A stretch of 64,000 nucleotides of DNA from Pseudomonas phage HPP-Temi: sequence record PP968062.1; one strand, written 5' to 3'. Positions within the stretch are counted from its first letter, which is position 1. Each line of letters begins with the position of its first letter. Positions 985 to 61,043 of this stretch are shown piece after piece. The notes below the pieces were generated by a model, which was not told the origin of the DNA, searched no databases, and saw nothing but the letters and a program-made list of their open reading frames with translations. The position numbers and the translations under genes are program-made.

Positions 985-1074
985 TGTTAAACCCTCAATT
1001 GTGGTTTACAAAATTTACTTAACCCACATAGCATTATAAAAGCCCCTCCAATTAAGGAGGGGCTAATATTATTG

Positions 1075-1518
1075 TTACTGAGTAGAAATTACCATCTTTA
1101 AGATCTCAATGAGACCAAGACCTAGGGTCTTAAAGATATCAGCAACTTCACTACTCATCGGTCCGTCTGTATTGATAACGCTTACAACAACACCAGTGGA
1201 CAGAATAGCAAGCAAAGCACTTGCAGTCAAAATGGAACTGCGGTAAGTATCACTAGCTCGATGACCAGTGTATTCCTTTTCCAGTAACACGTTCTGTTTG
1301 CTAAGATCAGACAGCGAATAGATCTCTGTCAGAACTTCATCAGCAGTTGTATTACCGTCAACACGTGCACTACCATCGGCATGCAACATACCGTTCAGGT
1401 ACGCTACGATTTGACGATAGTTAGGAGCCTTCGACAAAGGCTTATTGCCCATGTCACTTAGTATTTGTTCTAGAGTCATAGCTTCTCTCCATCTCCGACT
1501 GTTTTGTATCCCAGTCAC
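1075..1518 (-). CDS. Hypothetical membrane protein with C-terminal TM helix (possible holin/antiholin-like lysis component); start uncertain (1518, 1479 or 1452)
   Basis: C-terminal hydrophobic stretch ILTASALLAILSTGVVVSVI...LGLGLIEIL. Sits between the spanins and the endolysin. The internal Met at 1452 lies 1 nt after the o-spanin stop. Confidence 0.5.
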   Translation of the reverse strand: MTGIQNSRRWREAMTLEQILSDMGNKPLSKAPNYRQIVAYLNGMLHADGSARVDGNTTADEVLTEIYSLSDLSKQNVLLEKEYTGHRASDTYRSSILTASALLAILSTGVVVSVINTDGPMSSEVADIFKTLGLGLIEILKMVISTQ

Positions 1519-1870
1519 GGAGCTTCTCGATTTGTAGATTACACGAACCGAGATAATCGGTTTGGAGTAGCCAGTGATCAGTCATCAGTAGGAAGCGTGC
1601 TTCCCAAGGATCCGTGATACCAGCGACCTTATACCGATCTGGAGCTTTGATGAGGTCATCAGCTGATGGCGGAGGAGCTACGTAGCAAAGTTGTTTGAAG
1701 CTACTTGGTACCGCACTGCGCGTCCAGTCGTTTGGCTTTGCAGTAGTGCTCGTGCATCCTGTTAGCAAGGGTGACAAGAGCAACATCATCAGTAACACCG
1801 CTACTAGTTTCAGCGGTGGAGGTGGGATTTGACCGAATTGGTTCTTCCCTAGCTTTTTCCACAGGGACAT
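1454..1870 (-). CDS. Outer-membrane spanin (o-spanin) lipoprotein, overlapping the i-spanin gene in another frame
   Basis: From the internal Met: MSLWKKLGKNQFGQIPPPPLKLVAVLLMMLLLSPLLTGC. Positively charged N-region, hydrophobic core, lipobox L-T-G-C; proline-rich mature part. Starts inside the i-spanin ORF and extends past it (overlapped architecture). Confidence 0.6.
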   Translation of the reverse strand: MSLWKKLGKNQFGQIPPPPLKLVAVLLMMLLLSPLLTGCTSTTAKPNDWTRSAVPSSFKQLCYVAPPPSADDLIKAPDRYKVAGITDPWEARFLLMTDHWLLQTDYLGSCNLQIEKLRDWDTKQSEMERSYDSRTNTK

Positions 1871-2207
1871 CTTTTTCAGTAGGCCACTTGACCCCTGTTT
1901 GTCCGGATAAGTTAATGTACTCATCAATCACTCCTGCTCGTGATTGTTCTAGCTCTCTCAGCTCATCGACTTTTTGAGTGGTATATTGACTTACGGTTTC
2001 GTCAGTGATGGCAGCAGACTTACCTTGCATTTCCACTTTGACTTCTAGTTGACTATTCTTTTCAACTAGAGCGCCATTGTGAACAAGCTCATCAGTATAC
2101 TGGTTATAGAAGAACCACAGTCCAAGCCCACCGGTGATAACTACACCGATAAACACCCAATTAAACCACTTGATGTTTTTTAACCAGTTGAACATATTAC
2201 CTCTCAC
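1701..2207 (-). CDS. Inner-membrane spanin (i-spanin): N-terminal TM + coiled-coil periplasmic domain
   Basis: N-terminal TM WFNWVFIGVVITGGLGLWFFY, then a charged helical region (ELRELEQSRAG...). The o-spanin is embedded/overlapped; adjacent to the lysis genes. Confidence 0.6.
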   Translation of the reverse strand: MRGNMFNWLKNIKWFNWVFIGVVITGGLGLWFFYNQYTDELVHNGALVEKNSQLEVKVEMQGKSAAITDETVSQYTTQKVDELRELEQSRAGVIDEYINLSGQTGVKWPTEKDVPVEKAREEPIRSNPTSTAETSSGVTDDVALVTLANRMHEHYCKAKRLDAQCGTK

Positions 2208-3681: not shown

Positions 3682-3764
3682 TCTTTTAATCCTTGACTTA
3701 GAAAGTTCATTGTACCATTGTGTAAGAATTTTTAGCTTGCCTCCCTTTGGGGAGGCTTATGCCG

Positions 3765-4253
3765 TTAGGTGTACTGTTGGAAGTCACCACGTATCATTAC
3801 ACATGCCCACAACTGACCATGGTCGGACTTGGGAATAGCGTGAACGGTACTCAAGTTGAAAGCGATCTGCTCGCCTTTACGAAGTTCAACAAGACGACCG
3901 TTAAGTTGGATAGATTGGCGGTCAGTCAATGCAGTAGCAATGATAGTACCCGAACCAGGTTTATCTACCCAGGTAGTCATCTGATCGAGGAATCCACGTC
4001 CAGCAGGAATATCAAGGAACCAACCCTGAACTGCTTTCTTTTGGATATCTTCGTGGAAACCAATACGGAAGGTTTCACGTTGAGCTGCGGTCCAATCAAA
4101 CCACTTTGCATAATTGTAGATGCTCAGTGCTTTGGTCTTGTTCTTACCGATACGACAACGCGAACCATAGGAATCTTTGTACTTAACCTGACGGGAAAGC
4201 TTTACCAGAGTTTCCACTTCCTCATCGGTAAGGGGTTCGAAATGTTTATACAT
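3765..4253 (-). CDS. Hypothetical protein with HxD...H motif (possible 2OG-Fe(II) oxygenase/cupin-like)
   Basis: GFHEDIQKK ... STVHAIPKS ... MIRGD pattern; weak family assignment. Confidence 0.4.
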   Translation of the reverse strand: MYKHFEPLTDEEVETLVKLSRQVKYKDSYGSRCRIGKNKTKALSIYNYAKWFDWTAAQRETFRIGFHEDIQKKAVQGWFLDIPAGRGFLDQMTTWVDKPGSGTIIATALTDRQSIQLNGRLVELRKGEQIAFNLSTVHAIPKSDHGQLWACVMIRGDFQQYT

Positions 4254-5296: not shown

Positions 5297-6661
5297 TTAG
5301 ACGATTCGAGTGAGACTACTACCGTTACGGCGCATTACAACCATTGTTGGCATTTTGCGACCATTGTTGAAGTCCAGCAAGTATTGAGCAAATCCATAAC
5401 CACCATCAGCAATCTGCGAGATATTTGCCTGGAGAGCACTGATAGCAGCTTGAGCGCTAGCATAACGTCCACCAGCATAATAGTGCCCACGTGCATTGGC
5501 ATTATAAGTCGCAAATAGATCACGGAAGTGAACGATTTGTCCATTACCCATAATGCAGTAGTCAGACGGGATATTTGGACGACCTTGAGGATCAGTTCCA
5601 GTAGGAGGCCATGGAGTTGGGAACGACGTAACGAATTGTTTTAACTCAAAACGAGTGATGTTCCAAATGTTACTAGCGTCAAGGTCAACTCGCGCTGGGA
5701 AATACAATTGTTCCCAACCTACACCAGCTAACAGTTTAGACGTAAATGCACGCTGTGTACGGTGAAGCCGTTGTGCATAGACTGCATCAATCTCGGCTTT
5801 GCTGTACAGGTTCATGATTGCCAGTGTTAACCCATGTGGGTTATTTTGATTACGGATGTGGTCTGTAAGCTTTGGAATCAAAATGGATTGGATTAGATTA
5901 AAGATACCTCCAATTGGCATATACACATTGGTAAGAGTAGTATCTGTTGACTGGGCTTTTGTGGCCATTGGCCAGTTATTAATTAGACCCAACTTAATCT
6001 TTGTCTTATCCGAAGAGTGCGGGTTATTTTCATCGGTTATGTGAGCATTCACCCGATTGATATAGTTTTGCACTTCGTCTTTCGCAAGCTGAACGTAATA
6101 TTTGTAATAGTCCGTACCAGAAGCGAGAATCGCAGTTCGCCCGGCTGCCCATGCATCACCTAAACGGTTAATATTGACAACTGTGGACTCAAGACCATAC
6201 AACTGCCAATACTCATGCATGTGTTCAGATGGAGTATATGCAGTCGGCTTACCGATGATTTCTTCCCAAGTAAACTTAAGATTAGTCTCATCTATTTTCT
6301 CCATCAGTGCTTTGAGTTCTTTTACAGAAACACTGAAGAATCCACCAACTGCATGGTATTCCACTCGAACGACTGGAGTGACAGAAGCATTGGTGATAAC
6401 CACAAGGCCCATCACATTCTGCCCAGTCATTTCAGAAAGCTTTTCGTAGTGATAGGTTAAAACATAGTCCTTACCACGTACGAGTGCTTTACCAGTAGAG
6501 TCCCTTAGTACAAAGCCATTCGTATAGAAACCACCATGGGTACAAACGAACACACGATGCTTCTTACCAGGAACTTGAATTAGAGTGTGTTCCTCACCTT
6601 TAATCCAGTTATCTGGATCTTCACCAGTAAGGTCAAGCTCAAGAAAAGTAATATCGTTCAT
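5297..6661 (-). CDS. Tail fibre-like protein, paralog 1 (shared N-terminal anchor domain + NPH fibre repeats)
   Basis: N-terminal domain shared with ORFs 6662-8068, 8079-9446 and 9864-12152 (L.LD.TG.DP.N..GE.HTL....G.......HGGFY...L.V.D.....L..GKDY.....MVGG). Repeats AHITDENNPHSSDKTKIKLGLINNWPMATKAQ and HIRNQNNPHGLTLA. Confidence 0.6.
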   Translation of the reverse strand: MNDITFLELDLTGEDPDNWIKGEEHTLIQVPGKKHRVFVCTHGGFYTNGFVLRDSTGKALVRGKDYVLTYHYEKLSEMTGQNVMGLVVITNASVTPVVRVEYHAVGGFFSVSVKELKALMEKIDETNLKFTWEEIIGKPTAYTPSEHMHEYWQLYGLESTVVNINRLGDAWAAGRTAILASGTDYYKYYVQLAKDEVQNYINRVNAHITDENNPHSSDKTKIKLGLINNWPMATKAQSTDTTLTNVYMPIGGIFNLIQSILIPKLTDHIRNQNNPHGLTLAIMNLYSKAEIDAVYAQRLHRTQRAFTSKLLAGVGWEQLYFPARVDLDASNIWNITRFELKQFVTSFPTPWPPTGTDPQGRPNIPSDYCIMGNGQIVHFRDLFATYNANARGHYYAGGRYASAQAAISALQANISQIADGGYGFAQYLLDFNNGRKMPTMVVMRRNGSSLTRIV

Positions 6662-8068
6662 TTATACCTTCCAGGAATTTAGCAATGTATCAAACACAGC
6701 GAAACCAACGGAGTTAATATACGTTGTGATTGCACCGTTACCAGTACCGATACCCCAGCCACCAAGATAACGGAAGATGGCCGTTGTACCAGCAGGGTGG
6801 TTCCTACCTAGCACGTTGTTCAACTGAGCTTCAGCGTTTGCACCATTAGGATCGAACGATCCAGCAGCGTAAATAACACTCTTTGGTTTATCGATCCAGG
6901 CTTCTTGAATATCGACCCAATGAAGCCAACTGGCGGCGTCAGCTGATGCAGGAACAAGGAATGCGTAGTTACTGGCCGGTGGGATTACCCCACTTGCAAA
7001 CGTTTGTGGTGGTAACAGACCTGTCTTTATCTGTCCAAGGATTTCGTTTGTGCGAGTGTACTCATAAAGCTCTTGGAATGTCATTCCATTGTTAGTCGTA
7101 TTGTTATTGGCATCTTTAACACCACCAATACGATCAGTACTGTTAACAGTTTCACCACGGTTGTAATAGTTCCCAGCTACTTGCTGGTGTTCTTGAACTG
7201 TATACGTACCGAGTTTGGCGGCTGTCTCTTTGTGAGGGTTATTACGGTCCTCAATGTGCGCTTGTAGAATCGGTATGAAATTCTTATCGATACTTTGTTT
7301 AGCGCGTAATGGCGTAGCATAACGATCAAGGATATCCCCATTGGCTGCTTCAGCTTGATCTTTAGTAGCAATAGCAGCATTCTTCACTTTTTCAAGCTGT
7401 ACTTTTGCAGCTGTGAGTTTGTGAGGGTTATTACGATCGTTAATGTGGGTAGTAAGACGTTGTTCGATGGAGGTAAGCTCATCTCCAACTAAAGCCAGTT
7501 CAGCTTTATATTGATCAAACAGAGCGTCCATATCTTTCTTTACGAACTTCTCACCAGCGGCGGTGATTCGCTTAAGTAGTAATACTTGAGGCGTAAACCC
7601 ATATAGTTCCCACAATGCGTGTAGGTGGCCGTTAGGTTTATAATCATCCGGTTTACCAGTGATGTTGTTCCAATGGATTTTCCGAGTATTGTTGATCAAC
7701 CCAAGTGCTTGGTTAGCGATCGCTTTACCAAGGTTACAGTAAACACCACCGACCATTTGGGCATCAACCCTGATCTCATGGTGAACCCGAGGGTTCTTAA
7801 TGACAATAACTGCAAAAGCTGGAAGACCAGTCTTCTTAGTAATCTCTGGATGCATCTGAGTGCATTGAAAATCGTCCTTCTCTTTTAACACATAGCCACG
7901 ACCATCGATCATGTGCAAGTTGTTATTATAGAAGTACCCTTTATCCAGAACAATCACCCGATATGGCAGACCAGCTTGATCTGCCAAGTTGTGGTATTCT
8001 CCACGCGTGCGGTTATTGAAACAAGTGCCCGTCCCATCATAGGGAAGAGCGTGAAGTAATGGGTTCAT
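6662..8068 (-). CDS. Tail fibre-like protein, paralog 2
   Basis: Same N-terminal domain; repeats THINDRNNPHKLTAAKVQLEKVKNAAIATKDQAEA and AHIEDRNNPHKETAAKLGTYT. Abuts paralog 1 with no gap. Confidence 0.6.
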   Translation of the reverse strand: MNPLLHALPYDGTGTCFNNRTRGEYHNLADQAGLPYRVIVLDKGYFYNNNLHMIDGRGYVLKEKDDFQCTQMHPEITKKTGLPAFAVIVIKNPRVHHEIRVDAQMVGGVYCNLGKAIANQALGLINNTRKIHWNNITGKPDDYKPNGHLHALWELYGFTPQVLLLKRITAAGEKFVKKDMDALFDQYKAELALVGDELTSIEQRLTTHINDRNNPHKLTAAKVQLEKVKNAAIATKDQAEAANGDILDRYATPLRAKQSIDKNFIPILQAHIEDRNNPHKETAAKLGTYTVQEHQQVAGNYYNRGETVNSTDRIGGVKDANNNTTNNGMTFQELYEYTRTNEILGQIKTGLLPPQTFASGVIPPASNYAFLVPASADAASWLHWVDIQEAWIDKPKSVIYAAGSFDPNGANAEAQLNNVLGRNHPAGTTAIFRYLGGWGIGTGNGAITTYINSVGFAVFDTLLNSWKV

Positions 8069-8078
8069 GTTGATTCCT

Positions 8079-9446: not shown

Positions 9447-9523
9447 TTATTTTCTCCAAATTGAACAAAAGATAGAACCACCGTGCTTTTACACACAGTG
9501 ATTCCATCTGATGCCAGGGTAAG

Positions 9524-9847
9524 TTACAAACGATCGTAAGCGTCGTTGAACGACTTTTCTATCGCCTTGAAGATATTCTCCTCGGCGTAGTTATCTACCC
9601 GTTTAGGTGTCATGAACGAAGAGTTGTTCGTGCCGCCCTTAGCTTGATCTTGCTGTGCTGGTAGCCAGTCAGGTACGTTACCTAGACCGATGTCGCGAGG
9701 AGTCAGTTCGTGCACGTTACCTTTTGCAAGGATGTGTCCGTTCAGACGATCGCGGCAACTGCGCAACAGGTTGAGAACGATATTGTTAAACTGACCAATA
9801 TTGTTCTTCAACTTATCAAGCTCAACGCGGAATACTGTCATAGTCAT
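9524..9847 (-). CDS. Small protein (107 aa) carrying a single tail-fibre repeat unit
   Basis: GHILAKGNVHELTPRDIGLGNVPDWLPAQQDQAKGGTNNSSFMTPKRV is near-identical in pattern to a repeat of the 762-aa fibre (NAHIAATGNVHGMVPKDIGLGNVPNYPAATPQQAVDPTNNSTLMTPYTV). Confidence 0.5.
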   Translation of the reverse strand: MTMTVFRVELDKLKNNIGQFNNIVLNLLRSCRDRLNGHILAKGNVHELTPRDIGLGNVPDWLPAQQDQAKGGTNNSSFMTPKRVDNYAEENIFKAIEKSFNDAYDRL

Positions 9848-13527: not shown

Positions 13528-13538
13528 GACAACATATT

Positions 13539-13557
13539 GCCCGGCTCAAGGCCGGGC
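13539..13557. terminator. Bidirectional terminator hairpin between convergent genes (GCCCGGC tcaag GCCGGGC), followed by TTTATGTCG
   Basis: Perfect 7-bp GC stem between the stop of 12241..13527 (+) and the stop of 13567..16293 (-). Confidence 0.6.
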
Positions 13558-13566
13558 TTTATGTCG

Positions 13567-16293
13567 TTAGCGGAAGTCAGATGTATCTTCTTCTTCCTCT
13601 TCATCCTTTTCAGCAGCCGCCATCGGATCTTCAAGACCTTCAGGGTTAGGCTTATCTTCAGGATTGACGTCTTCAGAAGGACTATCACTAAAATCCATGT
13701 CGTCTTCTGGGGTATCGGTAGGTGTATCACCAGTGCCGCCATCAACACCCAGATCGGTTTGATCGTCAGGCATATCGGAGAACGAGTCATCTTGTCCACC
13801 GGTATCAGAACTATCGTCACCACCTGCGTTCCAATCACCGCCACCTCCACCACCCATGTCGTCAGCACCTTCAATGGTGGACTTATATTTGGCTTCGAGG
13901 CGTTTCTTGGATTCTTGTTGATGCTTAGCGTAACTAAGGATTGCAGAACCCACAGTTTCCTGTTGTACGTTCAGCCAGTCAAGCAGGCTGAACGCAGGCT
14001 TATCCCCATCCATCTCTGTAAGGACGTTAAGTTCCGGAAGGATATTGTGGGTAGCCATGAACTTACGTTTAAACAGGGCTTTAAGCTGAACCATCACTTG
14101 GTCAGACAGACCGGGAATAGAAGTGAACTCATCAGGGAAGAGCTCGCTAGTGATGTAGTTTTCGAGACCCATAGTCAGCAGTCGATCGTAAGCATCCATC
14201 GATTCAGCTTGACGTTCATGTTGAGTGTTGTCCGGTGCAGGCAGGGATACTTCAATTGCCGTAATGAACTCATCAACTACTTCTTCTACAGTTAGCGGTT
14301 TAAGCTCAGGAGAAGTGAGCATGTCAACATTGTCTTGAACGATCTTGTACATTTGGTTACGCAGGATAGAGCTGTGCGTTACAAACGACTTAACGAACTT
14401 AGATAGGTGTTGGCAGAACGCCTTTTGTTTCTCTTTAACACGACGGGACATTACCAGGTCGTTTTGCACAACAGAGGTAGCGAAGTCAGGAGAAGACATC
14501 GGGTCCACTTTCTCCGGAGGAACGCCCATACCGGAAATGTGCATACGGCGCAGGCGATCCTGAAGATCAGGGTTACCAGCGTTGACGTTAGTATTGTAGT
14601 CGTCGTATTGTACTTTGGTCTCTGCGTAGTCAGCACCGTTAGTGTTGATCTCAAAGTCAAAGCCCGAACGAATCAGGTGATCCATTGCCTGAGTGGGGTC
14701 AGGTGCAGCCAGAGGGAAACTCCGGTGAGCGGATTCCATGATGTTCGATTGAATGTTACTGATCGTTTGTTCCGGGTCAGTATCATCCGGGTCTAGAGTA
14801 ATGCTAACACGTTTACGACCTACTGCGTTACGCATACCACCAATAGCTTCTGCCATCAACAGAGTAGAACGCATGGTTGCGATTACTTTCGAACGAGACA
14901 GCAGGGTTTCACCAATACCGTTTTCGTTATAGTCGAATGCAATATAAACCAGAAGCTCGGCTGGAATGAATACCAGTTGGGTGTGTTTAGCTTTCCAGGA
15001 GCGGTACAACATGATCCGTTGGATTTCTTCAGTCAGACCGATTTCAATCTCTTGGTCATACATGCCGTTACGTAGACGGTTATTTAGATCGTTTACGATA
15101 ATGGCGTTATATGTTTGTTGGATCTCATCCACTTCGAAGTCTTGCTTAGAAGTGTTAGCACCCATTGCTTCCCGAGTAAGACGAAGAACCTCAGAACTGT
15201 TGTCGTTGTTCTTACCACCTTTCCATCCCGATTGGAGTTCGCCGTAGAAGTCACGTGTCGAATCCTTAGAGAGAGGGTAGCCATGTTGGTCGACTAGGAG
15301 GAAATAACCGATGTGTTCATGAGGTCGCCCTTGAATGAATACCGGAACAATAGACTCCATTGGCAAAGGCAGAGTCAGCGGATGACCTACCGATGGACGG
15401 TTCATGTACTTAGGCGAAGTAATTACCTGAGTGTGTTCAGTACCACCCAGACGATTTTGATACAGTTGTTCAATCTCTGCGTTACCGAACTTGTGGACAG
15501 CATTCTCCATAGAGATCTGATTACCACGAAGCTTACGAGCAATGTTCATTTCACGAACACGCTGAGACATAGACGGGACTTTGAGGATATTGAAATTGTC
15601 GGTTACAGTGAGTAGCTTGTCACCGCGAATACGGTTAACAGAAGCATTATCATGGTAACCTTCCAGAGAGATATTGTTCTTCTCAGGATGACCTAAGAAA
15701 CCAAGGTTTTCAGTCGTGGTGTTTTGGACACGATCTCTAATAGAAGAAAAGGTTTCCATCGACACCTGACGACGACCATTGATAAGGTTATCTAGAACGT
15801 TCTCTGGGAGAACTGCAAGAATCGAAGCCCCTTTACGGAACAAGCAATCCCGAAGGATCAGGTCCAGGCGGTCGTTAATCTTATAGTCTCGTTTAAAGTA
15901 CGTTTCAACTGGCTCTAACAATAGCTTAGAAATTTCACTATCAAAGATAGCTGGGTCGATAGCAAATGTAAGGTCCGTATCCGAAAGTGCTTTAGGATCG
16001 ATGATACTACCGACATATACAGTTTCTACCAGCTCTAAGTCTGGCAGCAATTGCATAATAGAGTCGGAGTCAACGATCTCTTGCAAAGTATCACGCGACA
16101 CCTTATCTAATGTGAAACGGTTTACGTTCACACGAGGCTTAGCTGCTTCGCTGCCAATTGCGTTCGGGTCCTTACGCAACAGGTTGAGGAGGGCGTTAGT
16201 CGGAGTTGCTTTCGATCCTAGTCGGAGCGTTTGCAACTTTGGGTACGCTACCTCATTCGTTTGTCGAGCCATTTGAAGCTCCTCGTTTAACAA
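13567..16293 (-). CDS. Large virion protein (908 aa) with poly-Gly/Asp/Glu acidic C-terminal tail; putative portal protein
   Basis: Size and position (about nine genes from the putative major capsid gene, as in phiKZ gp120-gp129 from memory). C-terminus DDMGGGGGGDWNAGGDDSSDTGGQDDSFSDMPDD...EKDEEEEEDTSDFR. No diagnostic motif; the portal call is an inference. Confidence 0.4.
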   Translation of the reverse strand: MLNEELQMARQTNEVAYPKLQTLRLGSKATPTNALLNLLRKDPNAIGSEAAKPRVNVNRFTLDKVSRDTLQEIVDSDSIMQLLPDLELVETVYVGSIIDPKALSDTDLTFAIDPAIFDSEISKLLLEPVETYFKRDYKINDRLDLILRDCLFRKGASILAVLPENVLDNLINGRRQVSMETFSSIRDRVQNTTTENLGFLGHPEKNNISLEGYHDNASVNRIRGDKLLTVTDNFNILKVPSMSQRVREMNIARKLRGNQISMENAVHKFGNAEIEQLYQNRLGGTEHTQVITSPKYMNRPSVGHPLTLPLPMESIVPVFIQGRPHEHIGYFLLVDQHGYPLSKDSTRDFYGELQSGWKGGKNNDNSSEVLRLTREAMGANTSKQDFEVDEIQQTYNAIIVNDLNNRLRNGMYDQEIEIGLTEEIQRIMLYRSWKAKHTQLVFIPAELLVYIAFDYNENGIGETLLSRSKVIATMRSTLLMAEAIGGMRNAVGRKRVSITLDPDDTDPEQTISNIQSNIMESAHRSFPLAAPDPTQAMDHLIRSGFDFEINTNGADYAETKVQYDDYNTNVNAGNPDLQDRLRRMHISGMGVPPEKVDPMSSPDFATSVVQNDLVMSRRVKEKQKAFCQHLSKFVKSFVTHSSILRNQMYKIVQDNVDMLTSPELKPLTVEEVVDEFITAIEVSLPAPDNTQHERQAESMDAYDRLLTMGLENYITSELFPDEFTSIPGLSDQVMVQLKALFKRKFMATHNILPELNVLTEMDGDKPAFSLLDWLNVQQETVGSAILSYAKHQQESKKRLEAKYKSTIEGADDMGGGGGGDWNAGGDDSSDTGGQDDSFSDMPDDQTDLGVDGGTGDTPTDTPEDDMDFSDSPSEDVNPEDKPNPEGLEDPMAAAEKDEEEEEDTSDFR

Positions 16294-19815: not shown

Positions 19816-19837
19816 GCCCTCTCCCGAAGGAGAGGGC
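19816..19837. terminator. Bidirectional rho-independent terminator (GCCCTCTCC cgaa GGAGAGGGC) flanked by an A12 run on the left and TTATGCCGTT on the right
   Basis: Perfect 9-bp stem with tetraloop between convergent genes. A/T run gives a U-tract for minus-strand transcripts. Confidence 0.7.
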
Positions 19838-19871
19838 TTATGCCGTTATTGCCTTTGTTCAATGATAGTCT

Positions 19872-20608: not shown

Positions 20609-20640
20609 CCTCTGTGATATAGGCTTTATTTATCTTTAAA
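20609..20640 (-). promoter_or_regulatory. Candidate phage early-type promoter (gene strand: TTTAAAGATAAATAAAGCCTATATCACAGAG)
   Basis: Matches the recurring motif TTTnAAA-N2-6-CTATAT(T/C)ACA, which occurs five times in this window. An inverted copy, TTATATCAC, lies at 20601-20609. Confidence 0.4.
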
Positions 20641-21165: not shown

Positions 21166-21188
21166 TTCATTCTCCTAGAGGGACATAA

Positions 21189-21208
21189 AGCCCCTCTAAT
21201 GAGGGGCT
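21189..21208. terminator. Intergenic hairpin AGCCCCTC taat GAGGGGCT with CATAAA left arm
   Basis: Member of the CATAAAG-hairpin-CTTTATG family. Confidence 0.5.
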
Positions 21209-21624: not shown

Positions 21625-21643
21625 GTACTGCTCCTCTAAAGAA

Positions 21644-21668
21644 GCCCCTCCGAAGAGGGGCCTTTATG
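21644..21668. terminator. Intergenic hairpin GCCCCTC cgaa GAGGGGC followed by CTTTATG
   Basis: GC stem plus conserved TTTATG arm. Confidence 0.5.
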
Positions 21669-26907: not shown

Positions 26908-26939
26908 CACTGTAATATAGATTTGAAATATTTTTTAAT
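26908..26939 (-). promoter_or_regulatory. Candidate early-type promoter (gene strand: CATTAAAAAATATTTCAAATCTATATTACAGTG)
   Basis: TTTCAAA-N1-CTATATTACA motif upstream of gene 26394..26873. Confidence 0.4.
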
Positions 26940-26944
26940 GACGA

Positions 26945-26978
26945 CATAAAGCCTCTACCCGAAGGTAGAGGCTTTATG
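26945..26978. terminator. Extended palindromic hairpin CATAAAGCCTCTACC cgaa GGTAGAGGCTTTATG (15-bp stem)
   Basis: Perfect inverted repeat downstream of the capsid gene stop (27089); best example of the CATAAAG...CTTTATG element. Confidence 0.65.
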
Positions 26979-27088
26979 CCAGCAGTCAGCTTTACACTTC
27001 CGCTTTACCGCTCCAGGCGGCGGGCCACTCCGTCTTCAAGATAACGGGTAGTTCCATTCTCAAGCTTACGGAAGGTTCCCTTTCCAGT

Positions 27089-31600: not shown

Positions 31601-31610
31601 TGACATAAAT

Positions 31611-31630
31611 GCCTTCCCTCCGGGGAAGGC
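31611..31630 (+). terminator. Hairpin GCCTTCCC tccg GGGAAGGC followed by TTTATTCAC, after the DnaB-like gene
   Basis: Perfect 8-bp GC stem 11 nt after the stop; CATAAAT on the left. Confidence 0.6.
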
Positions 31631-31660
31631 TTTATTCACAAATTCACAAGAGTAAATAGC

Positions 31661-32062
31661 ATGAGTTGTATTGACGCACTGATTGATAACCTAAAGGGTT
31701 ACCTTCGTTTCAATCTACAACAACGTCATGGTACTACTGTTCTGGTACATGTGGCATCCCAAAACCTCTATAAAGTAAAATTCGAAGTAGCTAAGCTTTT
31801 CATTAATGCATTAGATGGCATGGAAGTTGACTTCCTTACAATGTCCGCCAATGAGATCATGGAGAAGGGTGAGCGTTATCGAGCATCCCTGTTCTTTAGT
31901 CATCATCTCCATATCGACATTAAGCAGAAAGCTGCCCCATATCCAGATGGTGATTTCCTTGGAGTGGACGTAACCAACTATTCCAAATACTTCTACGATA
32001 CAGACCCGTGTCAAGAAGGTCAGGCTATGTTGGCTAACTATCTCGAAGAACGTAAGACCTAA
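31661..32062 (+). CDS. Hypothetical protein (133 aa)
   Basis: ORF followed by hairpin GCTCCC tacg GGGAGC TTTATGTCGTC at 32069-32095. Confidence 0.5.
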   Translation: MSCIDALIDNLKGYLRFNLQQRHGTTVLVHVASQNLYKVKFEVAKLFINALDGMEVDFLTMSANEIMEKGERYRASLFFSHHLHIDIKQKAAPYPDGDFLGVDVTNYSKYFYDTDPCQEGQAMLANYLEERKT

Positions 32063-32118
32063 CATACTGCTCCCTACGGGGAGCTTTATGTCGTCACAAT
32101 CTTATAACACTAATTAAC

Positions 32119-33144: not shown

Positions 33145-33164
33145 GGCGAGGTTTGGGCCTCGCC
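33145..33164 (+). terminator. Rho-independent terminator (GGCGAGG tttgg GCCTCGCC + TTATTATTT)
   Basis: GC hairpin plus T-rich tail directly after the stop of 32119..33135. Confidence 0.65.
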
Positions 33165-33360
33165 TTATTATTTCGTCATAGACTCTAAAGCAGGAATAAG
33201 GATTAAAGAGGTTTATAATTAGAATAAGGAAATACCTTCGGTATTGTTTATTACTAAATAAAACCCCCCTCCTCCGGAGGTACCTTTTCCTCGCTCTACA
33301 GATTTATTAAACACCCTAGTAAAACTTCTAAATCGATAAAAAAAAAATAAACTAAGTAAA

Positions 33361-33676: not shown

Positions 33677-33930
33677 GAAAGCCCACTTGGGCGAAAAGTC
33701 AAGCTTAAACTTGACGACATATAGCCCTCCTGTGCAACCAGGAGGGCTAATCTTTTCAGAACGTACGGTGTTGTTATAATACTGCTAGCGAAAATGCCCA
33801 CGAGGGGTAAGTAGCTAATCCGCAGTTCTCTTGGACGACACCTACTGACAGTGTAGTCGCGAATGCACTGTTTGGAGCCCCATTGGTTTAGCGGCCAATG
33901 GGGATTTCCTTTTTATGCCGCTTCGGACTT

Positions 33931-35750: not shown

Positions 35751-35783
35751 GCCCCTACCTTCGGGTAGGGGCTTTATGCCGTT
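35751..35783. terminator. Hairpin GCCCCTACC ttcg GGTAGGGGC followed by TTTATGCCGTT
   Basis: Perfect 9-bp stem; member of the conserved element family. Confidence 0.55.
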
Positions 35784-40004: not shown

Positions 40005-40036
40005 ATTGAGATGGGGTCTCCGAAGAGACCCATCTA

Positions 40037-42266: not shown

Positions 42267-42303
42267 CACATTTGTAATATACGTTTCAAATGGATTAAAA
42301 TGT
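42267..42303 (-). promoter_or_regulatory. Candidate early-type promoter (gene strand: CATTTTAATCCATTTGAAACGTATATTACAAATGTG)
   Basis: TTTGAAA-N2-TATATTACA motif, 30-70 nt upstream of the small ORF start at 42235. Confidence 0.45.
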
Positions 42304-42326: not shown

Positions 42327-42342
42327 GGGCTCCTAAGAGCCC
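42327..42342 (-). terminator. Hairpin GGGCTC ctaa GAGCCC after the stop of 42349..42630
   Basis: Short GC stem immediately after the stop codon, followed on the minus strand by CTTTCCTTTATCTC. Confidence 0.4.
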
Positions 42343-43435: not shown

Positions 43436-43469
43436 CACTTGTAATATAGCCTTTAAATTGGTTTGAATG
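43436..43469 (-). promoter_or_regulatory. Candidate early-type promoter (gene strand: CATTCAAACCAATTTAAAGGCTATATTACAAGTG)
   Basis: TTTAAA-N2-CTATATTACAAG; best match to the window consensus. Confidence 0.45.
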
Positions 43470-43911: not shown

Positions 43912-43978
43912 TTTCCTTTTGGGTTGGAGTGAAGCGACATAAAGCCCTGATCGGAATGACCAGGACTTTTAAGTTTGG

Positions 43979-45299: not shown

Positions 45300-45321
45300 C
45301 CCACCCCAATTAAGGGGTGGG
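45300..45321 (-). terminator. Rho-independent terminator (CCCACCCC aattaa GGGGTGGG, with a U-tract on the minus strand); stop codon of the upstream gene lies in the loop
   Basis: Perfect 8-bp stem; the preceding A-rich run gives TTTTTATTTAGG on the minus strand. Confidence 0.65.
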
Positions 45322-48682: not shown

Positions 48683-50368
48683 TTAACTCCTAATGTCGGA
48701 AATGATGTGTGCAAACAATACGTTCAATGGACCGACTTTATGTTGATCTATATAACCACCACCTGGTCCAACTTCTGCAATGATCTTGTCTTGCTCTTCA
48801 CGAGCTTTAGCAATATCACCCCATTTCACGATACCACGTTTAAACGTATTAGGTAATTCAGACGTGATAGGTGTAGTACCTTCACCTGGAGCTTCTGGGT
48901 TTTCTGGACGAGGGCCACTTAGGCCCAGTAGTTTCATCTTCTCGATCGGGTTACGACCAATACTAACACGGAACAACCGGAACAGACTCCAACAAGTAGT
49001 TGGATAACGGCGAATCATCTCCCAGTACTTATCATGGATACCATAGAAGTTCTTAGAGAGACTGATTTGGATGTGGTAATACTTCAGCGGATCTAATGGG
49101 AATGTTGTTCTCAGAAGAGTAGTTCCAGGATCAATCGTCATCGGTACACGTAACCGTTCGTTATTTTGGTACAGACGGATTTCAAAGAAAGAACCATCTG
49201 CAATTGCAGCTGTTCCTAATGTCTTAATAAACTCAAGCCAATACGGGTTGAATGTAAACCGACCTAGGTTCTTGAAGTCCATCAGAGATGTCAGGTCATC
49301 CTTACTCAAACACAGCAGTCCGTTAAAGAACGTGAAGCGGTGAATAGGAATCTGATCGGTATGCCAATCATCGACATCTGGATGTTGAATGTAGGGCAGC
49401 CCCATGTCACGCATCAGAAGGAACTGATGGTCAAGGGTACCACGCAGAGAAGTTGTCTTACGATCAACAGCCTGATAGTTCTGATAACGATATTCAGGAC
49501 GGAAGATCTTCGGGATCACACACTGGTTCATCAGCATCGGGTAAGATACCCGCATGTGAGTTGGCCGCTCGTAACGACAGAGATAACTGAAGTTAACAGT
49601 GTAGCCACCAGCATTGTCAGAAGACTTCTGTGGAGTATCAGGAGACGAACTGAAATCGAACCAACCTACCACGTCAACTTGTCGTTCGTAGATAGTCAGC
49701 GTCGGATGGGTATCGATAAGAGTAGCCATCTCAGTCTGCGGTTGGCACCAATGAGCTTCCATCCATTCTTGGAAGGATTGATCACTTGGCCAATTAGACT
49801 TCTGCATCGTATCGTACAGACCTTTCATAAGGCCCAGTAGAGACGGAGGAACGTTGTAGTGATAAGTCAACGACATAGTCATCTCAGCACCACCAGCAGA
49901 ACAACGAATACGTTGATCGTCTAACCAGCGTTGAGCCAGTACTACGTTAGGTGCCTGATACTCGATGTCAATCCTGAAATCAACAAAGCGTCGAATAGGA
50001 CGAATTGTAATATCGTGAGTCTCGTCTACAAATAGAGGGAAGTTCTCGTTATTGTAAACAGAGGTGGAAAGAGTAAAGTTCTCTTCCGCTATTTCTTCAT
50101 AGGACACTACAATCCTTTCTTCTGGATCGAAGTGTACTGCGTCAGCTGCATCACAGCAGTTACCGAACATACCGTCGTTCATTGGAACTGTATCGATACG
50201 ACCTGGGAGTAGAACTCTGGTTGCACCGGGTAACTGCATCATGGTAGCAATCTGTCGAACAGCATCAACAGACACCTTCCGCATTACGGTTTCGTATACG
50301 TCTGGCAAGGGGATAGTTGCATGGGGCATGGTAACCACCTCATGGTTTAAGATCATAAGATCCGGCAT
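48683..50368 (-). CDS. Hypothetical protein (561 aa), probable structural
   Basis: Long ORF. Preceded by hairpin 50372-50393 (CATAAAGCCCTGCC tttttg GGCAGGGC GATATG). Confidence 0.55.
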
Positions 50369-50406
50369 AAAGCCCTGCCTTTTTGGGCAGGGCGATATGT
50401 TGTTAC

Positions 50407-54200: not shown

Positions 54201-54248
54201 ATTAACTCCTGAACATAAGACGGGACTCCGAAGAGCCCCGTCGATGTC

Positions 54249-55676
54249 TTAGTCTTTTGCCGGCGCTTTATGCATGGCGACTTCTTGCATGTAGACAGAA
54301 GCGTAGGCTGCAACAGTGCGGGTAACGTACCGAATGATTTCACGAGAACGCGGGTTGGATTCGCGAATCATTTCCAGAGCGGTTTGAGTTACTTTGCGAG
54401 CAGCTGCTTTAGAAGCTTCGTCCAGATCAGCGGAGGTCAGTTGACCTTCGATCTTCTCAACGGCTTTCTTAATAGCTTCGGCACCTTCTTTGATCTTACC
54501 GTGTTCGTCACGAGCCTTCTTCAGGATCTCGATAACGTTACGCAGATTCTTGGTGTTCTTACGCAGAGTGCTCGGATCAGATACCTTCACTTCGAATTCA
54601 GCTGGAGCTTCTTTCGCAGAAGCAGCTGGACCGATACCGTAGACGATACCATCAGCATGCAGTTCTACACGCATATTGCCAGGGAACACATCGTGGTTAG
54701 CACCATAGATATCATCCAGCGGAGCGATAGCGTGACGGAGTTTATCCGACATTTCATCGCCATCACCTTTGACAACACTGTAGCTGTTCAGCAGCTTAGC
54801 CAGGTTCTCGTAATACTTCTTAACTGCGCTCGGATAAACGTAAGCAGAGAAGTGAGCCAGACCCGAGAGAGCTTTGGTATCGTTCAGTTTGGATTTACCG
54901 TTAGCAAACACAGGACCCGGATTACTCAGGATAAAGGTCTTACCGGTACCACTCCAAACATTACCACCCGCTTCAAGAGCTTCTTCTACTTTAGCAACAG
55001 CGTTATCTGCTTTGGTGATACCAGTCATCAGATTCTCAACGCCATCAAGGATAGCGGTAACAATCTTAGCGATGATCTCTTTCAGTTTCTCGAACGCCTT
55101 GTTAGCGTACTCTTTGATATCTTCAACAGAGATCTCAGCACGCAGGATAGCAGAACGATCACCGGCATCATACGATTCGAGACCAGTGGAAATTTTATTG
55201 GTACCCAGGACACGTTCAACTTGTTTGATACCTACACGGAGGAAGGCAGCAGTTTGTTGAGAGATATCACCACGAGCTTGACGCAGGAGACCAGTATAAG
55301 CTTCCAGAGCGTGTTGTGTTTCGATCAGTTCGTCAGCACGTTGTTCCAAGATCTCTTTCTCAACATGAGCATGAGAAACAGCATCGAGAACGCCAGCGGC
55401 TTCAGTTACATCGATAGGACCTTCAACCGGAACGATCTCGACAGGGACTTCAGTCGGAACAGGTTCAACAACATCTGCACCTACGGCACCGATTTCAGGA
55501 ACCGGAGTAGGAACAGGGAGTTCTTCAGGAACAGTGGTACCAACCACCGGAGTCTCTACGACTTCAACGGGTTGGGTTTCGATAGGAGCTTCTGCAACGG
55601 CAGCAACTTCTGGAGTAACCGGAGCTTCTTGGAACTCTTCCAGGCTACTGGTATACTTATGGATGGATCGTAGCAT
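54249..55676 (-). CDS. Inner-body-like head protein, paralog family member (475 aa)
   Basis: N-terminus MLRSIHKYTSSLEEF. Core ALEAYTGLLRQARGDISQQTAAFLRVGIKQVERVLG...TGLESYD, aligned with the paralogs. Confidence 0.6.
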   Translation of the reverse strand: MLRSIHKYTSSLEEFQEAPVTPEVAAVAEAPIETQPVEVVETPVVGTTVPEELPVPTPVPEIGAVGADVVEPVPTEVPVEIVPVEGPIDVTEAAGVLDAVSHAHVEKEILEQRADELIETQHALEAYTGLLRQARGDISQQTAAFLRVGIKQVERVLGTNKISTGLESYDAGDRSAILRAEISVEDIKEYANKAFEKLKEIIAKIVTAILDGVENLMTGITKADNAVAKVEEALEAGGNVWSGTGKTFILSNPGPVFANGKSKLNDTKALSGLAHFSAYVYPSAVKKYYENLAKLLNSYSVVKGDGDEMSDKLRHAIAPLDDIYGANHDVFPGNMRVELHADGIVYGIGPAASAKEAPAEFEVKVSDPSTLRKNTKNLRNVIEILKKARDEHGKIKEGAEAIKKAVEKIEGQLTSADLDEASKAAARKVTQTALEMIRESNPRSREIIRYVTRTVAAYASVYMQEVAMHKAPAKD

Positions 55677-56897: not shown

Positions 56898-56940
56898 TGT
56901 ACGGTCTCATTGAGTTAAACATAGAATTTGGCAAGACAGT

Positions 56941-56971
56941 CATAAAGCCCTCCTTCGGGAGGGCTTTTATG
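56941..56971. terminator. Extended palindromic hairpin CATAAAGCCCTCC ttcg GGAGGGCTTTTATG
   Basis: 13-bp arm palindrome between paralog genes. Confidence 0.6.
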
Positions 56972-58234: not shown

Positions 58235-58272
58235 GATTGCCTCGAAAAGGGAGTTGGATTACATAGCATAAA

Positions 58273-58288
58273 GGGAGCCGAAGCTCCC
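58273..58288. terminator. Hairpin GGGAGC cgaa GCTCCC with CATAAA arm; the gene-strand downstream reads TTTATGCTATGTAATCCAACTC
   Basis: GC stem with tetraloop; the downstream 22-mer is duplicated at 61001-61023. Confidence 0.5.
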
Positions 58289-58295
58289 CATGCTT

Positions 58296-60983
58296 TTAAC
58301 GAGTGGATGCATCCATCCAGTTCATCAGACCACGGATGTAAGTGAAGTAGAACTCCCACTGCCCACCACCGGCCTTGAAGAATGTAGCTTCGCCATCGTT
58401 ACCAAACTCGGCAATCTTACTTGCCAGTTTGACACACCATTTCTGAGTGTCATCTTTGGTATACTGAGCGATGTTACGGATGACATCAGTGTACTTACCA
58501 GTGCCAGCCATGTGAGCAGGAACGAAACGACTAAACAGACCGTGTTCGTTTACGACGTTGAAGGTTTCCCACCAAGTCTTACCCATAGAAGCTTCCCAAT
58601 AACCTTCTACGTAATCGATAGCTTTAATGATTTCAGCAGCAGCTTCAGCAACCTGTTCTTGGGTCATTGCAGGGAGAGTAACTTCAGCGTAAGAGTGAGC
58701 CATACCGGAGTTGTACTTAACCGGTTTGAACTTCTCAGCATCGAAGCTCGGCATTGCGTCGTACATCTTCTGCGCTTTCTCAGGATGGGTGCGATACTCC
58801 ATCTTGATCAGATAGTCGGTATACGGTTTAACAGATGCCGCTGCACGAGTGAATACAGATGCGTTACCACGAAGGGTTTGATTCAGGTGGCCAACCGCTT
58901 TAGCAATAACCTGTTTGAAATTATCATCCAGAGACGGGTCACCTTTGAACTTAACCTCACCTTCTACGAAGCGACGATTCTTCAGCCAGTTCGGATCAGC
59001 AAAAGTCTTAGCGATCTTTTCTTTGGCGGCAAGGTAACGTTCAGGTTGTAAATCTTCTTTGCGACCATGAATCATCGCATTGAAGAAATGACCTACTTCG
59101 TCGAAGAAACCTTCGTTAGAGAATACCAGGGGGTCATGGGACTCCATACCGGCACCTTTAACTTTCAGGTTGTTCAGGCATGCTTCCAGATACATCGCTT
59201 TACCGGACGAAGTATAGGTGACAAGAGTTGTAACCATTTGCAGGTTCATTTCTTGGATCATCTTAGTGATAGTACTAACGTACAGTTGTTGCAGTTCTTG
59301 AGTGTAACGTTCATCACCACCAGTACGGGCAGCTTTGATAGCTTCCTGAGACTTCTTCTGAGCGGAATCAACAATGCGAGTAATACGATCAGACTTACCA
59401 GCATTCTGATAGAACTTCTGGAGTGCCTTCAATTGAGTTTCAATCTGACCACGTTCAAGAGCATCGAGTTCTTCGCCAACGCGATCATCAGTAGCACGCT
59501 CAAGAATCAGTGCATGCCCTTCACGGATAATCTTACCACCACCAGGCAGAGCTTTCTCAACTTTGTCTTTGTTGGATTCGAGGCGTTGTTCAATGATAGC
59601 TTTGAACTCAGCTACGCCTTCACTCGAAGCTTCCATCTTAGCCAGTTGCTGACCAAGGAAGACAACGTTGGATTGCATAGCCATCGCGGCAGATACAGCC
59701 AGATCGATTACAGCTACTTCAGCAGAGGTATCAGTACCTACGAACTTACCGTCGGCATAGAAAAAGCGAGCTTTAGAAACTTTGATCTTCTCGTTTTCGG
59801 CGTAAGCGTTACGAGGCGTCTCAGCGATTGCGGTCAATGCCTTCTGTACACGGTCTTCAGCGCGGCTACGTTCGAAATCGAAGTTCTTCAGGTACTCAAC
59901 GAGCTTAGCCCAAAGTTCTTGGATCTTCTTGTAAATAGCACCACCGATTTGTTTCATACGACCAGTGATGGTATCTTCATTGACGTCTACCGATTCCATA
60001 GCGGAACGAGGAGTAGTGTCGAAAGATTCCAGACCAGTTGCTTTAGTCTTCAGACCAAATGTACGATCGATGTGCATCAGACTCGAATGCAGTACAGCAG
60101 CCGATTGCTTGGAGATACGACCGGACTTAACGATATCGTGATAAGCTTCTAGTGCAGTCTGTGCATCATGGAGCGAATCAATACTGGAAGATACTTGTTC
60201 GATACGATCGTGCGCCAGTTGAGTGGATTCATCCATTTCAACATCAGCAGCAGTCATCGGTTCAGCAGGAGCAATTTCTTCGATCGGATGAGCTAGAGGT
60301 TCGCCTTCAATGTTTTCATTCGAGGGCTTCTCTTCTTCCGAGGTTTCGCTTTCTTGAATTTCTTCACTGGCAGCTGCTTCATGGGCTTCTACCTGCTCAT
60401 GAGCTGTGGGTTCTTCAGCAGGAGTCTCGGACTCTACTTCAGATTCAGCTTCTGTTTCAGAAACGGGGGTTTCCATTTGAGTGCTGGGAGCAGCGGGATT
60501 CTCAATTGGCTCAGGAAGAGCATTCTCTTCAACCACTTCGGTGTCCGTGGATTCTTCGCTAACTTCCTCACTAGGAGTTTCGTTAACAGCGGGTTCAGTA
60601 GCCGCACCAACATCTTCAGGAGTAATAGCAGGTTCATCGCTGTTCTCGCGTACTACTTCAGACTCGGAACGTTGAGCTTCGATATTCGGCTTCTCACCGG
60701 TACCGTCCCATAGGGGTTCATGAGCATCACCGAAGTCTTCATGACCATAGATGCCTTGACGAGTAACCCACTCACCTTTAACGAATACCCAGTCAACACC
60801 GTTAACGTGGTATACCGCACCTTCTTCCGGATTCTCGGGAAGGTCTTTGGTAGTGGTCAGTGCTTTTACAGACGTCTCTACGGATTCAACCGGAACATCA
60901 TGGGCGACACCGTCGCCAATCGATTCGTTAGAAAGAGTGGCTTTACCACCACCCAGGTGCTTTTGCAGATTATGAATAGACAT
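58296..60983 (-). CDS. Inner-body-like head protein, paralog family member (895 aa) with acidic E/T/S-rich region
   Basis: Core ALEAYHDIVKSGRISKQSAAVLHSSLMHIDRTFG...TGLESFD; acidic low-complexity N-terminal third. The + strand ORF 59067..60152 is antisense. Confidence 0.6.
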   Translation of the reverse strand: MSIHNLQKHLGGGKATLSNESIGDGVAHDVPVESVETSVKALTTTKDLPENPEEGAVYHVNGVDWVFVKGEWVTRQGIYGHEDFGDAHEPLWDGTGEKPNIEAQRSESEVVRENSDEPAITPEDVGAATEPAVNETPSEEVSEESTDTEVVEENALPEPIENPAAPSTQMETPVSETEAESEVESETPAEEPTAHEQVEAHEAAASEEIQESETSEEEKPSNENIEGEPLAHPIEEIAPAEPMTAADVEMDESTQLAHDRIEQVSSSIDSLHDAQTALEAYHDIVKSGRISKQSAAVLHSSLMHIDRTFGLKTKATGLESFDTTPRSAMESVDVNEDTITGRMKQIGGAIYKKIQELWAKLVEYLKNFDFERSRAEDRVQKALTAIAETPRNAYAENEKIKVSKARFFYADGKFVGTDTSAEVAVIDLAVSAAMAMQSNVVFLGQQLAKMEASSEGVAEFKAIIEQRLESNKDKVEKALPGGGKIIREGHALILERATDDRVGEELDALERGQIETQLKALQKFYQNAGKSDRITRIVDSAQKKSQEAIKAARTGGDERYTQELQQLYVSTITKMIQEMNLQMVTTLVTYTSSGKAMYLEACLNNLKVKGAGMESHDPLVFSNEGFFDEVGHFFNAMIHGRKEDLQPERYLAAKEKIAKTFADPNWLKNRRFVEGEVKFKGDPSLDDNFKQVIAKAVGHLNQTLRGNASVFTRAAASVKPYTDYLIKMEYRTHPEKAQKMYDAMPSFDAEKFKPVKYNSGMAHSYAEVTLPAMTQEQVAEAAAEIIKAIDYVEGYWEASMGKTWWETFNVVNEHGLFSRFVPAHMAGTGKYTDVIRNIAQYTKDDTQKWCVKLASKIAEFGNDGEATFFKAGGGQWEFYFTYIRGLMNWMDASTR

Positions 60984-61023
60984 ATCGATTCTCTGACTTG
61001 TGAATTGGATAACATAGCATAAA

Positions 61024-61043
61024 GGGGAACCGCGTGGTTCCCC
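61024..61043. terminator. Hairpin GGGGAACC gcgt GGTTCCCC with CATAAA arm; the gene-strand downstream reads TTTATGCTATGTTATCCAATTC
   Basis: Perfect 8-bp stem; flanks duplicated with the 58273-58288 element. Confidence 0.55.

Follow-up and report, generated by a model that had tools for sequence, protein, structure and literature searches.

In phage phiKZ, 61 intrinsic terminators share the sequence BCCYCCCCHWWDGGGRRGGBYTTATKYYGT (Putzeys et al. 2024, Microlife, PMC10914365). Motif A of phage 201phi2-1 (n = 59) resembles it, and where a motif B co-occurs the hairpin is longer; eight 201phi2-1 terminators were assayed in an in vivo terminator trap, the authors reporting that function was confirmed for several, and the long stems were taken by them as a hint at antitermination control (Microb Biotechnol 2024, PMC11512511). 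Late promoters of phiKZ have the core TATG, with the G as +1 (Yakunina et al. 2015, PMC4666361), and non-template TATG is bound by a beta-lobe pocket of gp123, a beta-like subunit of the non-virion RNA polymerase (nvRNAP) (IUCrJ 2026, PMC12809450). Here we analyse a 64,000-nucleotide stretch of Pseudomonas phage HPP-Temi (sequence record PP968062.1; hereafter the window), for which an initial annotation had described a family of intergenic palindromes of the form CATAAAG-GC hairpin-CTTTATG. These elements are very probably factor-independent terminators of the sequence-conserved phiKZ/201phi2-1 type, a family already described in those two phages and to which the window adds members.

In a similarity search with a 12-kb probe from the window, the relatives were Pseudomonas jumbo phages only, with PS119XW and PA1C as the best matches (87.8% identity), followed by PhiPA3 (~80%) and 201phi2-1 (~76%). 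On sequence comparison the window is that of a PhiPA3/PA1C-like Pseudomonas jumbo phage.

TATG Adjoins the Intergenic GC Hairpins

As stem lengths vary, the census was made with a structure-aware, window-wide scan for strong intergenic GC hairpins rather than with a rigid 30-nt consensus. It gave 24 hairpins, 18 of which carry TATG on at least one strand (CATA on the other) 1-3 nt past the last G:C pair. Six of them (13539, 26951, 32069, 50372, 56947 and 61024) have TATG on both strands, and this two-strand TATG next to the stem is the source of the CATAAAG...CTTTATG pattern; the annotated presence of the signal on both strands is borne out. The repeated elements are real, and all eleven cited examples read as described. 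Of these, 58267-58288 has one arm only, and the members at 3739, 19816 and 35751, cited for a recurring tail, do possess that tail but have the arm on the + strand only. The TTTATG arm assigned to 1041 is actually TTTATAATG, and the list of members had missed two, at 43944-43966 and 54219-54242.

Enrichment was assessed on the 22 strongest intergenic hairpins, that is, on 44 tails. TATG stands at offset 0-3 in 21 of these tails (offset 2 in 15 of the 21), where 0.77 would be expected from the intergenic TATG frequency (binomial P = 1.4e-25), and it is the top 4-mer among the tails. Among intragenic hairpins it is found in 1 of 192 tails (Fisher P = 7e-17), so the arms are indeed enriched relative to other GC hairpins. 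Seen from the other side, 21 of 37 intergenic TATGs (22 of 36 in a recount) adjoin a hairpin, as do seven of the ten copies of TTATKYYGT in the window.

The stem starts 5-13 nt past a stop codon in 22 of the 24 hairpins, and a UNCG tetraloop is present in 11 (UUCG in nine), lying on the sense RNA strand in nine of the 11 (P = 0.065). Common to most stems are a pyrimidine-rich (C/T) 5' arm and a purine-rich (G/A) 3' arm, typical ones being GCCCCTCC, GCCTCCC, GCCCTCTCC, GCCTCTACC and GCCCTGCC; the C/T-rich 5' stem arm is missing in three of the 18 TATG-armed hairpins (43944, 58273 and 61024), the last two showing reversed polarity. TATG arms are absent from the hairpins at 33361, 33878, 37983, 40014, 42327 and 45300, the last four of which fall within a block of phiKZ-early-like genes. 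A search of the whole window against Rfam 15 at the gathering score gave zero matches, as did a tRNA scan of the window. A hairpin of another kind, with 17 pairs, a higher AU content and no TATG arms, precedes TTTGTTC at 9470-9509 (-), between 9524-9847 and 8079-9446, and looks like a terminator.

Correspondence with phiKZ Terminators

The phiKZ start and end tables were taken from the bioRxiv supplement of the transcriptome study, and phiKZ and PhiPA3 DNA were compared with the window. The 3' arm of the window elements equals the published phiKZ tail YTTATKYYGT, and at least seven elements have as positional orthologue a phiKZ terminator whose 3' end has been mapped (Table 1). Mapped 3' ends in phiKZ lie 1-9 nt past the stem, with a mode of 8, which puts them from 4 nt before to 3 nt after the G in the tail TATG, a spacing that is ordinary intrinsic-termination geometry. 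The rigid published 30-nt consensus has one window copy within 3 mismatches, because stem lengths vary.

The window elements thus share with the phiKZ motif a GC hairpin with a C/T-rich 5' arm, a TTATG-YYGT tail at equal offset, an intergenic site just past stop codons and, for the seven, orthology to mapped ends; they differ in that stem length and loop vary more. The published phiKZ consensus is limited to the hairpin and the 3' TTAT region, leaving out the mirrored 5' arm, and the phiKZ paper makes no remark on the tail TATG being the late promoter core (PMC10914365). Motif B of 201phi2-1 lengthens the hairpin, like the CATAAA arm of the window, and may be the 5' arm.

Several points weigh against the terminator assignment. 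The mapped RNA 3' ends are those of phiKZ, the window phage being known here from sequence alone, and by analogy the same termination would occur in it. These phiKZ ends come from nanopore data, have a precision of ~2 nt and may include processed ends. Several antisense-facing tails (GATATG, AGTATG) are not U-rich and by bacterial rules would terminate weakly, and a plain U tract does not account for the conserved A and G within the tail. At 3739 and 35751, where the strand of the flanking genes has no usable tail, the terminator reading depends on + strand transcripts not otherwise known.

The Arms Extend the Stem and Mirror the Tail

RNA folding indicates that the arms lengthen the stem in most two-armed elements, as the initial annotation had suggested checking, and that element RNAs are far more stable than shuffled sequences. 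On the sense strand the 5' arm is laid out as stop codon, 0-6 nt, RCATAA and stem, and it pairs with the tail, contiguous pairs reaching 15 at 26945-26978; on the other strand it yields a second hairpin with TATGYYGT. In five window elements the two stem-adjacent nucleotides are mismatched and CATA/TATG further out is retained, so that the conserved feature is the fixed-offset TATG and not simply pairing or U-richness.

Among the window, PA1C, PhiPA3 and phiKZ, stems are swapped with full compensation while the arms stay, as in the change from GCCTCTACC/GGTAGAGGC to GCCCGC.CC/GG.GCGGGC and GCCCTCCC/GGGAGGGC. The earlier statement that stems differ and arms are retained holds in this sense, but the stems are not arbitrary, given the polarity common to most of them. 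The arrangement is replicated in phiKZ (90-140 kb), where 18 intergenic hairpins have 12 sense-side and 7 antisense-facing TATG tails. In the capsid terminator (26951-26972) the sense-strand loop is UUCG in the window and CGAA in PA1C (25949-25970 of its stretch), on identical stems; this loop change is, to judge from the two genomes, a small hairpin-mediated inversion. Other loop differences between the window and PA1C were seen at 35751 (ttcg vs ggaa) and 32069 (tacg vs ttcg).

The best reading of the 5' arm is two-way termination plus stem extension. In E. coli, termination is more efficient when an A immediately precedes the terminator hairpin, and bacterial bidirectional terminators (A tract, hairpin, U tract) are like the window elements in their palindromic flanks, in the A:U extension of the stem and in a possible stop in two directions. 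They differ in sitting between convergent genes with a T run as flank, whereas the window flank is a specific TATG-containing sequence and most window copies lie between co-directional genes, three being between convergent ones. Termination on both strands may occur: six elements have two TATGs, and the phiKZ orthologue of 13539 has ends on both strands, but those ends belong to the convergent T059/T060, the co-directional sites having no mapped two-strand ends, and several antisense-facing tails are poor in U. The antisense-facing arms have presumably been selected to block antisense transcripts.

Multisubunit RNA polymerases need a weak U/A-rich hybrid after the hairpin for termination, and the 3' arm sits exactly at that place; the view that the GC stems alone would be enough for termination is therefore not sustained. 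In the mechanism that we propose, the nascent RNA would fold the GC hairpin, beginning 5-13 nt past the stop codon, the next ~10 nt, (T)TTATG-YYGT, would form the weak U/A-rich hybrid, and release would be expected ~6-9 nt past the stem, close to the TATG G. On the other side of the stem, (AC)RRCATAA(A), the 5' arm that mirrors the tail, would pair with it and lengthen the sense stem, and would also give the opposite strand its own hairpin and TATGYYGT, so that most elements could stop transcription from either side. Promoters would be separate and 5-40 nt downstream, either late-type (C/T)TATG or early-type TATATTAC. The elemental pause consensus of cellular multisubunit polymerases is G-10, Y-1, G+1, and the YY-G junction past TATG may, by analogy, act like such a signal: a 3' end ~2 nt past the G would leave a pyrimidine at the RNA 3' end, with G next and a stem G ~10 nt back. 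This resemblance would explain YYGT without promoter-like recognition.

TATG Is Depleted from Coding Sequence

TATG is the most under-represented tetranucleotide in the coding sequence of the window. The observed/expected ratio (O/E) is 0.44 on the antisense strand (rank 1 of 256) and 0.65 on the sense strand (rank 2); against synonymous-codon shuffling, the counts are 55 observed vs 94 ± 7 and 184 observed vs 293 ± 11, respectively, and a like strand-biased depletion is found in PA1C, PhiPA3 and phiKZ (90-140 kb). The depletion is consistent with selection against spurious starts by the nvRNAP, above all antisense ones, and touches an open question of the field, the specificity of a 4-nt promoter. 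Mirrored arms, the fixed two-strand TATG offset and depletion in coding sequence together suggest that these phages curb spurious and antisense initiation by word avoidance and two-way terminators.

Alternative Readings of the Arms

The initial annotation had proposed a late promoter or transcription start immediately after the terminator, in which case the arm TATG would be an initiator for the nvRNAP and terminator and promoter would be fused on both strands. TATG with G as +1 is indeed the required phiKZ late promoter core bound by the gp123 pocket, the arm context C-T-T-TATG resembles real promoters such as GATCTTATG, and some downstream genes (for example at 21184, 32090 and 54214) have no other TATG in their spacer. 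This is nevertheless very unlikely. In phiKZ, not one of the 15 mapped terminators with a TATG tail is accompanied by a start at its tail G; starts lie further on, 21-43 nt away in four cases and, for P075/T064 and P049, at another TATG 5-10 nt on. Five window elements likewise have a separate second TATG 5-22 nt past the terminator, homologous to mapped phiKZ late starts (Table 1), which would be redundant if the arm were the promoter; behind the capsid terminator the next promoter is early-type (...TCTATATTAC), and the P119L homologue (G at 29968) has no hairpin. Hairpin-adjacent TATGs face either way, 11 toward the downstream gene and 11 into a gene 3' end, although antisense TATG is the most depleted coding 4-mer, whereas hairpin-free TATGs in short, well-annotated spacers point 8:0 toward the gene, 23-57 nt before start codons (P = 0.014 vs 11:11). 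Two pyrimidines, mostly within YYGT, come next after 20 of the 22 arm TATGs, compared with none of the 11 mapped phiKZ late starts (P = 4e-7) and 2 of 8 window promoter candidates, and a GC stem fills the upstream region that promoters keep AT-rich. The arms therefore hold the tetranucleotide of the phiKZ late promoter, often with C/T before it, but not its start at G (as judged in phiKZ), its gene-ward orientation, its AT-rich upstream region or its freedom from a downstream motif. Most likely the arms themselves are not promoters, although promoters often trail the terminators, and the part of the proposal that stands is the frequent separate TATG further on.

The same word could also act as a stop: TATG(YYGT) might be a sequence-specific pause/release signal read in the non-template strand by phage polymerases through the late-promoter pocket, acting together with the hairpin. 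TATG is fixed at offset 2 on both sides even with non-complementary, non-T neighbours (GATATG, AGTATG, AATATG), the phiKZ 3' ends cluster within -4 to +3 nt of the tail G, gp123 binds non-template TATG, and within genes the word is scarce in the sense direction too. However, TATG tails are common in phiKZ early-promoter operons read by the virion polymerase (T013-T015, T019, T021), the distance to the stem is ordinary for intrinsic termination, and the 201phi2-1 trap used uninfected cells, i.e., the host polymerase (PMC11512511). We regard such a signal as unlikely, and with it the idea that the TATG-YYGT flanks are more than a U-tract substitute, being the word that the nvRNAP beta-lobe pocket binds at late starts, which we consider no likelier. 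Were it so, one short word would mean 'start' in AT-rich DNA and 'stop' past a GC hairpin, and TATG on both sides of the hairpin would make a two-way insulator at each gene boundary against pervasive antisense transcription. Class II signals of T7 RNA polymerase, where a short DNA sequence next to a U-rich stretch causes sequence-specific pausing or termination, offer an analogy for this speculative reading only, since T7 RNA polymerase is a single-subunit enzyme and its signal needs no hairpin. A narrower idea, that TATG tails are specific to nvRNAP-read genes (in the early-like block at 36-46 kb most tails are plain T runs), was rejected as a rule because phiKZ early operons also end in TATG. 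It is similarly improbable that the 5' arm has no function of its own and is a by-product of hairpin-templated repair (quasi-palindrome correction) copying the 3' tail across the stem. Perfect long palindromes do exist (26945-26978 and PhiPA3 CATAATAGCCTCTCC...GGAGAGGCTATTATG), and the capsid loop, inverted on identical stems between the window and PA1C (TTCG vs CGAA), is what intrastrand template switching predicts, so part of the arm symmetry may come from such repair. But outward extension of pairing would not yield the five elements that keep the outer CATA/TATG beyond stem-adjacent mismatches, and one-sided antisense-facing arms are kept from the window to phiKZ (31611 and T054; 21643 and the gp124/125 spacer). 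Palindromy, multiple copies and intergenic location would suit a DNA-level element (a dimeric protein site, a cruciform or a mobile REP/MITE-like repeat) or an RNA-processing site, to which we give very little credence. Arm spacing varies from 27 to 33 bp, more than half a helical turn, which speaks against a dimeric DNA-binding site; stems vary in sequence and length between copies, and orthologous sites in different genera, from the window to phiKZ, keep their copies without duplicated flanks, which speaks against a mobile, or recently mobile, repeat; G.U-dependent pairing and UNCG loops point to RNA. As for RNA processing, also raised by the initial annotation, neither an Rfam match nor anything pointing to an endonuclease site was found in its support.

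The Antisense Elements at 3739 and 35751

In both elements TTATGCCGT is confined to the + strand, which is antisense to the two flanking genes, and the gene strand has no U-rich tail. Element 35751 folds at -32.0 kcal/mol (z = -8.3) on the + strand vs -21.6 on the - strand, because its arms pair through G.U only in the + strand RNA, and in these folding models it seems built for a + strand transcript. A conserved TATG lies 100 nt upstream (G at 35651), which makes a + strand RNA of ~130 nt (35651-35784), running from this TATG to the 35751-35782 terminator, a candidate; this stretch folds at -50.4 kcal/mol (z = -4.5), and its spacer shares 95% identity with that of PA1C.

Element Positions and Gene Context

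The gene map was made by carrying over the PA1C annotation with tblastn, and beyond 50 kb from open reading frames (ORFs) and the PA1C table. Genes on the - strand dominate it, and many encode virion proteins. Together with the elements it offers a map of transcription-unit boundaries for an unstudied PhiPA3-like jumbo phage, with 18 motif and 6 plain predicted terminators and ~12 promoter predictions linked to phiKZ sites mapped by experiment. It also offers a sorting rule, a GC stem upstream and YYGT downstream for a terminator tail, and AT-rich DNA upstream with no YY downstream for a promoter, which corrects the misreading of TATG behind a hairpin as a late promoter.

Table 1. Predicted terminators, promoter candidates and selected genes of the window, with their phiKZ counterparts.
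Position	Strand	Feature	Counterpart or remark
1027..1064	-	Terminator hairpin 1041-1064, tail TTTATAATG, then late-promoter-like GCTATG (G at 1027)	Hairpin 1042 orthologous to phiKZ T064; start P075 next, 10 nt later: ...GAGGAAGGCTTTATAATGCTATGT
3739..3765	+	Hairpin and TTATGCCGT, antisense to both flanking genes	Kept in PA1C
13530..13567	.	Two-armed terminator between convergent genes, ACATATT-hairpin-TTTATGTCGT	13539 orthologous to phiKZ T059/T060 (convergent genes; each strand with mapped 3' ends); folds at -24.7 kcal/mol on one strand and -24.2 on the other
19816..19846	+	Terminator between convergent genes; + tail TTATGCCGT, long T run after hairpin on -	
21181..21208	-	Terminator hairpin and TTTATGTCCC on sense strand	
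21643..21668	.	Terminator, sense (-) tail TTCTTT, UUCG loop; antisense-facing arm TTTATG, seen as CATAAAG past stop codon	phiKZ gp124->gp125 orthologue retains GCATAAAA-hairpin
26912..26940	-	Early-promoter-like AAAAAATATTTCAAATCTATATTAC directly behind capsid terminator	Matches phiKZ early promoters and sequence downstream of phiKZ T057
26945..26978	.	Terminator past gene for major capsid protein; 15-bp perfect palindrome CATAAAGCCTCTACC/GGTAGAGGCTTTATG; TTTATGTCGTCA as sense tail	26951 orthologous to phiKZ T057, past capsid gene; stem swapped with compensation in PhiPA3 and phiKZ, arms retained; 26939-26984 folds at -30.6 kcal/mol, z = -8.1
31604..31636	.	Terminator, sense (+) tail TTTATT, UCCG loop, antisense-facing arm ATTTATGTCA	31611 orthologous to phiKZ T054 (helicase->gp117.4 spacer), same one-sided layout
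32060..32095	.	Two-armed terminator, sense (+) tail TTTATGTCGTCA, opposite arm AGTATGTT	
33145..33176	+	Terminator variant, tail TTATTATTTCGT without TATG	Behind ORF missing from PA1C
33715..33749	-	Hairpin, - strand tail TATATGTCGTCA, U-rich + strand tail ATCTTTTC	33724 orthologous to phiKZ T004, 3' end mapped on U-rich side
35751..35782	+	Hairpin and TTTATGCCGT, antisense to genes, UUCG loop on + strand	Kept in PA1C
43935..43966	-	Imperfect hairpin and TTTATGTCGC on sense strand	
50351..50399	.	Two-armed terminator, sense tail TTTATGCCGG, opposite arm GATATGTTGT, then late-promoter-like GATCTTATG (G at 50354)	50372 orthologous to phiKZ T046 and P054 (gp097->gp098 spacer); phiKZ start is G of conserved GATCTTATGATCTTAAAC
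54211..54242	-	Terminator GACGGGGCTC-ttcg-GAGTCCCGTC and TTATGTTCAGGAG	54219 near-identical orthologue of phiKZ T044 (gp095->gp096 spacer); zero mapped starts there
56917..56971	.	Two-armed terminator, 21 nt later late-promoter-like AATTCTATG (G at 56920)	Promoter candidate resembles phiKZ P050 (...CCTAATTCTATG)
58259..58288	-	Terminator and TTTATG, then GCTATG (G at 58262), late-promoter-like second TATG	Layout of phiKZ P049, mapped start at second TATG
61010..61049	.	Two-armed terminator with TTTATG as sense tail and GATATGACGT opposite; GCTATG follows, its G at 61013	Orthologue of phiKZ gp093->gp094 spacer that carries P049
37983..38000	-	Plain terminator without TATG arms, tail TTTTTTATTTTT	
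33361-33383, 33878-33903, 40014-40031, 42327-42342, 45300-45321		Other plain hairpins	
G at 61013 and 58262		Second TATG, TTTATGCTATGT	Homologue of phiKZ P049
G at 50354		Second TATG, GATCTTATGATCTTAAAC	Homologue of phiKZ P054
G at 56920		Second TATG, AATTCTATG	P050-like
G at 1027		Second TATG, TTTATAATGCTATGT	Homologue of phiKZ P075
29965..29971	-	Hairpin-free late-promoter-like TATG TATATTCCTATGTAGACA (G at 29968)	Homologue of phiKZ P119L
G at 12209, 55726		Further hairpin-free late-promoter-like TATGs	
26912-26919, 42274-42281, 43441-43448, 20614-20621	all -	Early-promoter motifs, A-rich stretch ... TCTATATTAC / TATATCAC	
27089-29314	-	Major capsid protein gene	PA1C annotation transfer
23760-25385		Homologue of nvRNAP beta-like subunit gp123	PA1C annotation transfer
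~33-45 kb		Block of small genes matching phiKZ early-region genes	
10104-12128	+	Antisense ORF	Over gene 9864-12152 (-)
27194-29320	+	Antisense ORF	Over gene 27089-29314 (-)
54270-55673	+	Antisense ORF	Over gene 54249-55676 (-)

The early-promoter motifs precede the gp121-123 block and small early-like genes, and the nvRNAP gp123 homologue gene therefore appears early-driven, as in phiKZ. Upstream of phiKZ gp119, P063 reads ...TATATTGCTATGT.

A 338-aa ORF at 32119-33135 (+), absent from PA1C at this place, has terminators on either side (32069 and 33145) and gave zero matches in a Pfam scan. At 58296-60983 (-) there is one 895-aa ORF where PA1C has three consecutive annotated coding sequences (6491-9143 of its stretch), which reflects either a fusion in the window phage or frameshifts or annotation splits in PA1C. 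Very long antisense ORFs cover real genes nearly end to end (Table 1); these long shadow ORFs are probably an effect of codon composition and not coding.

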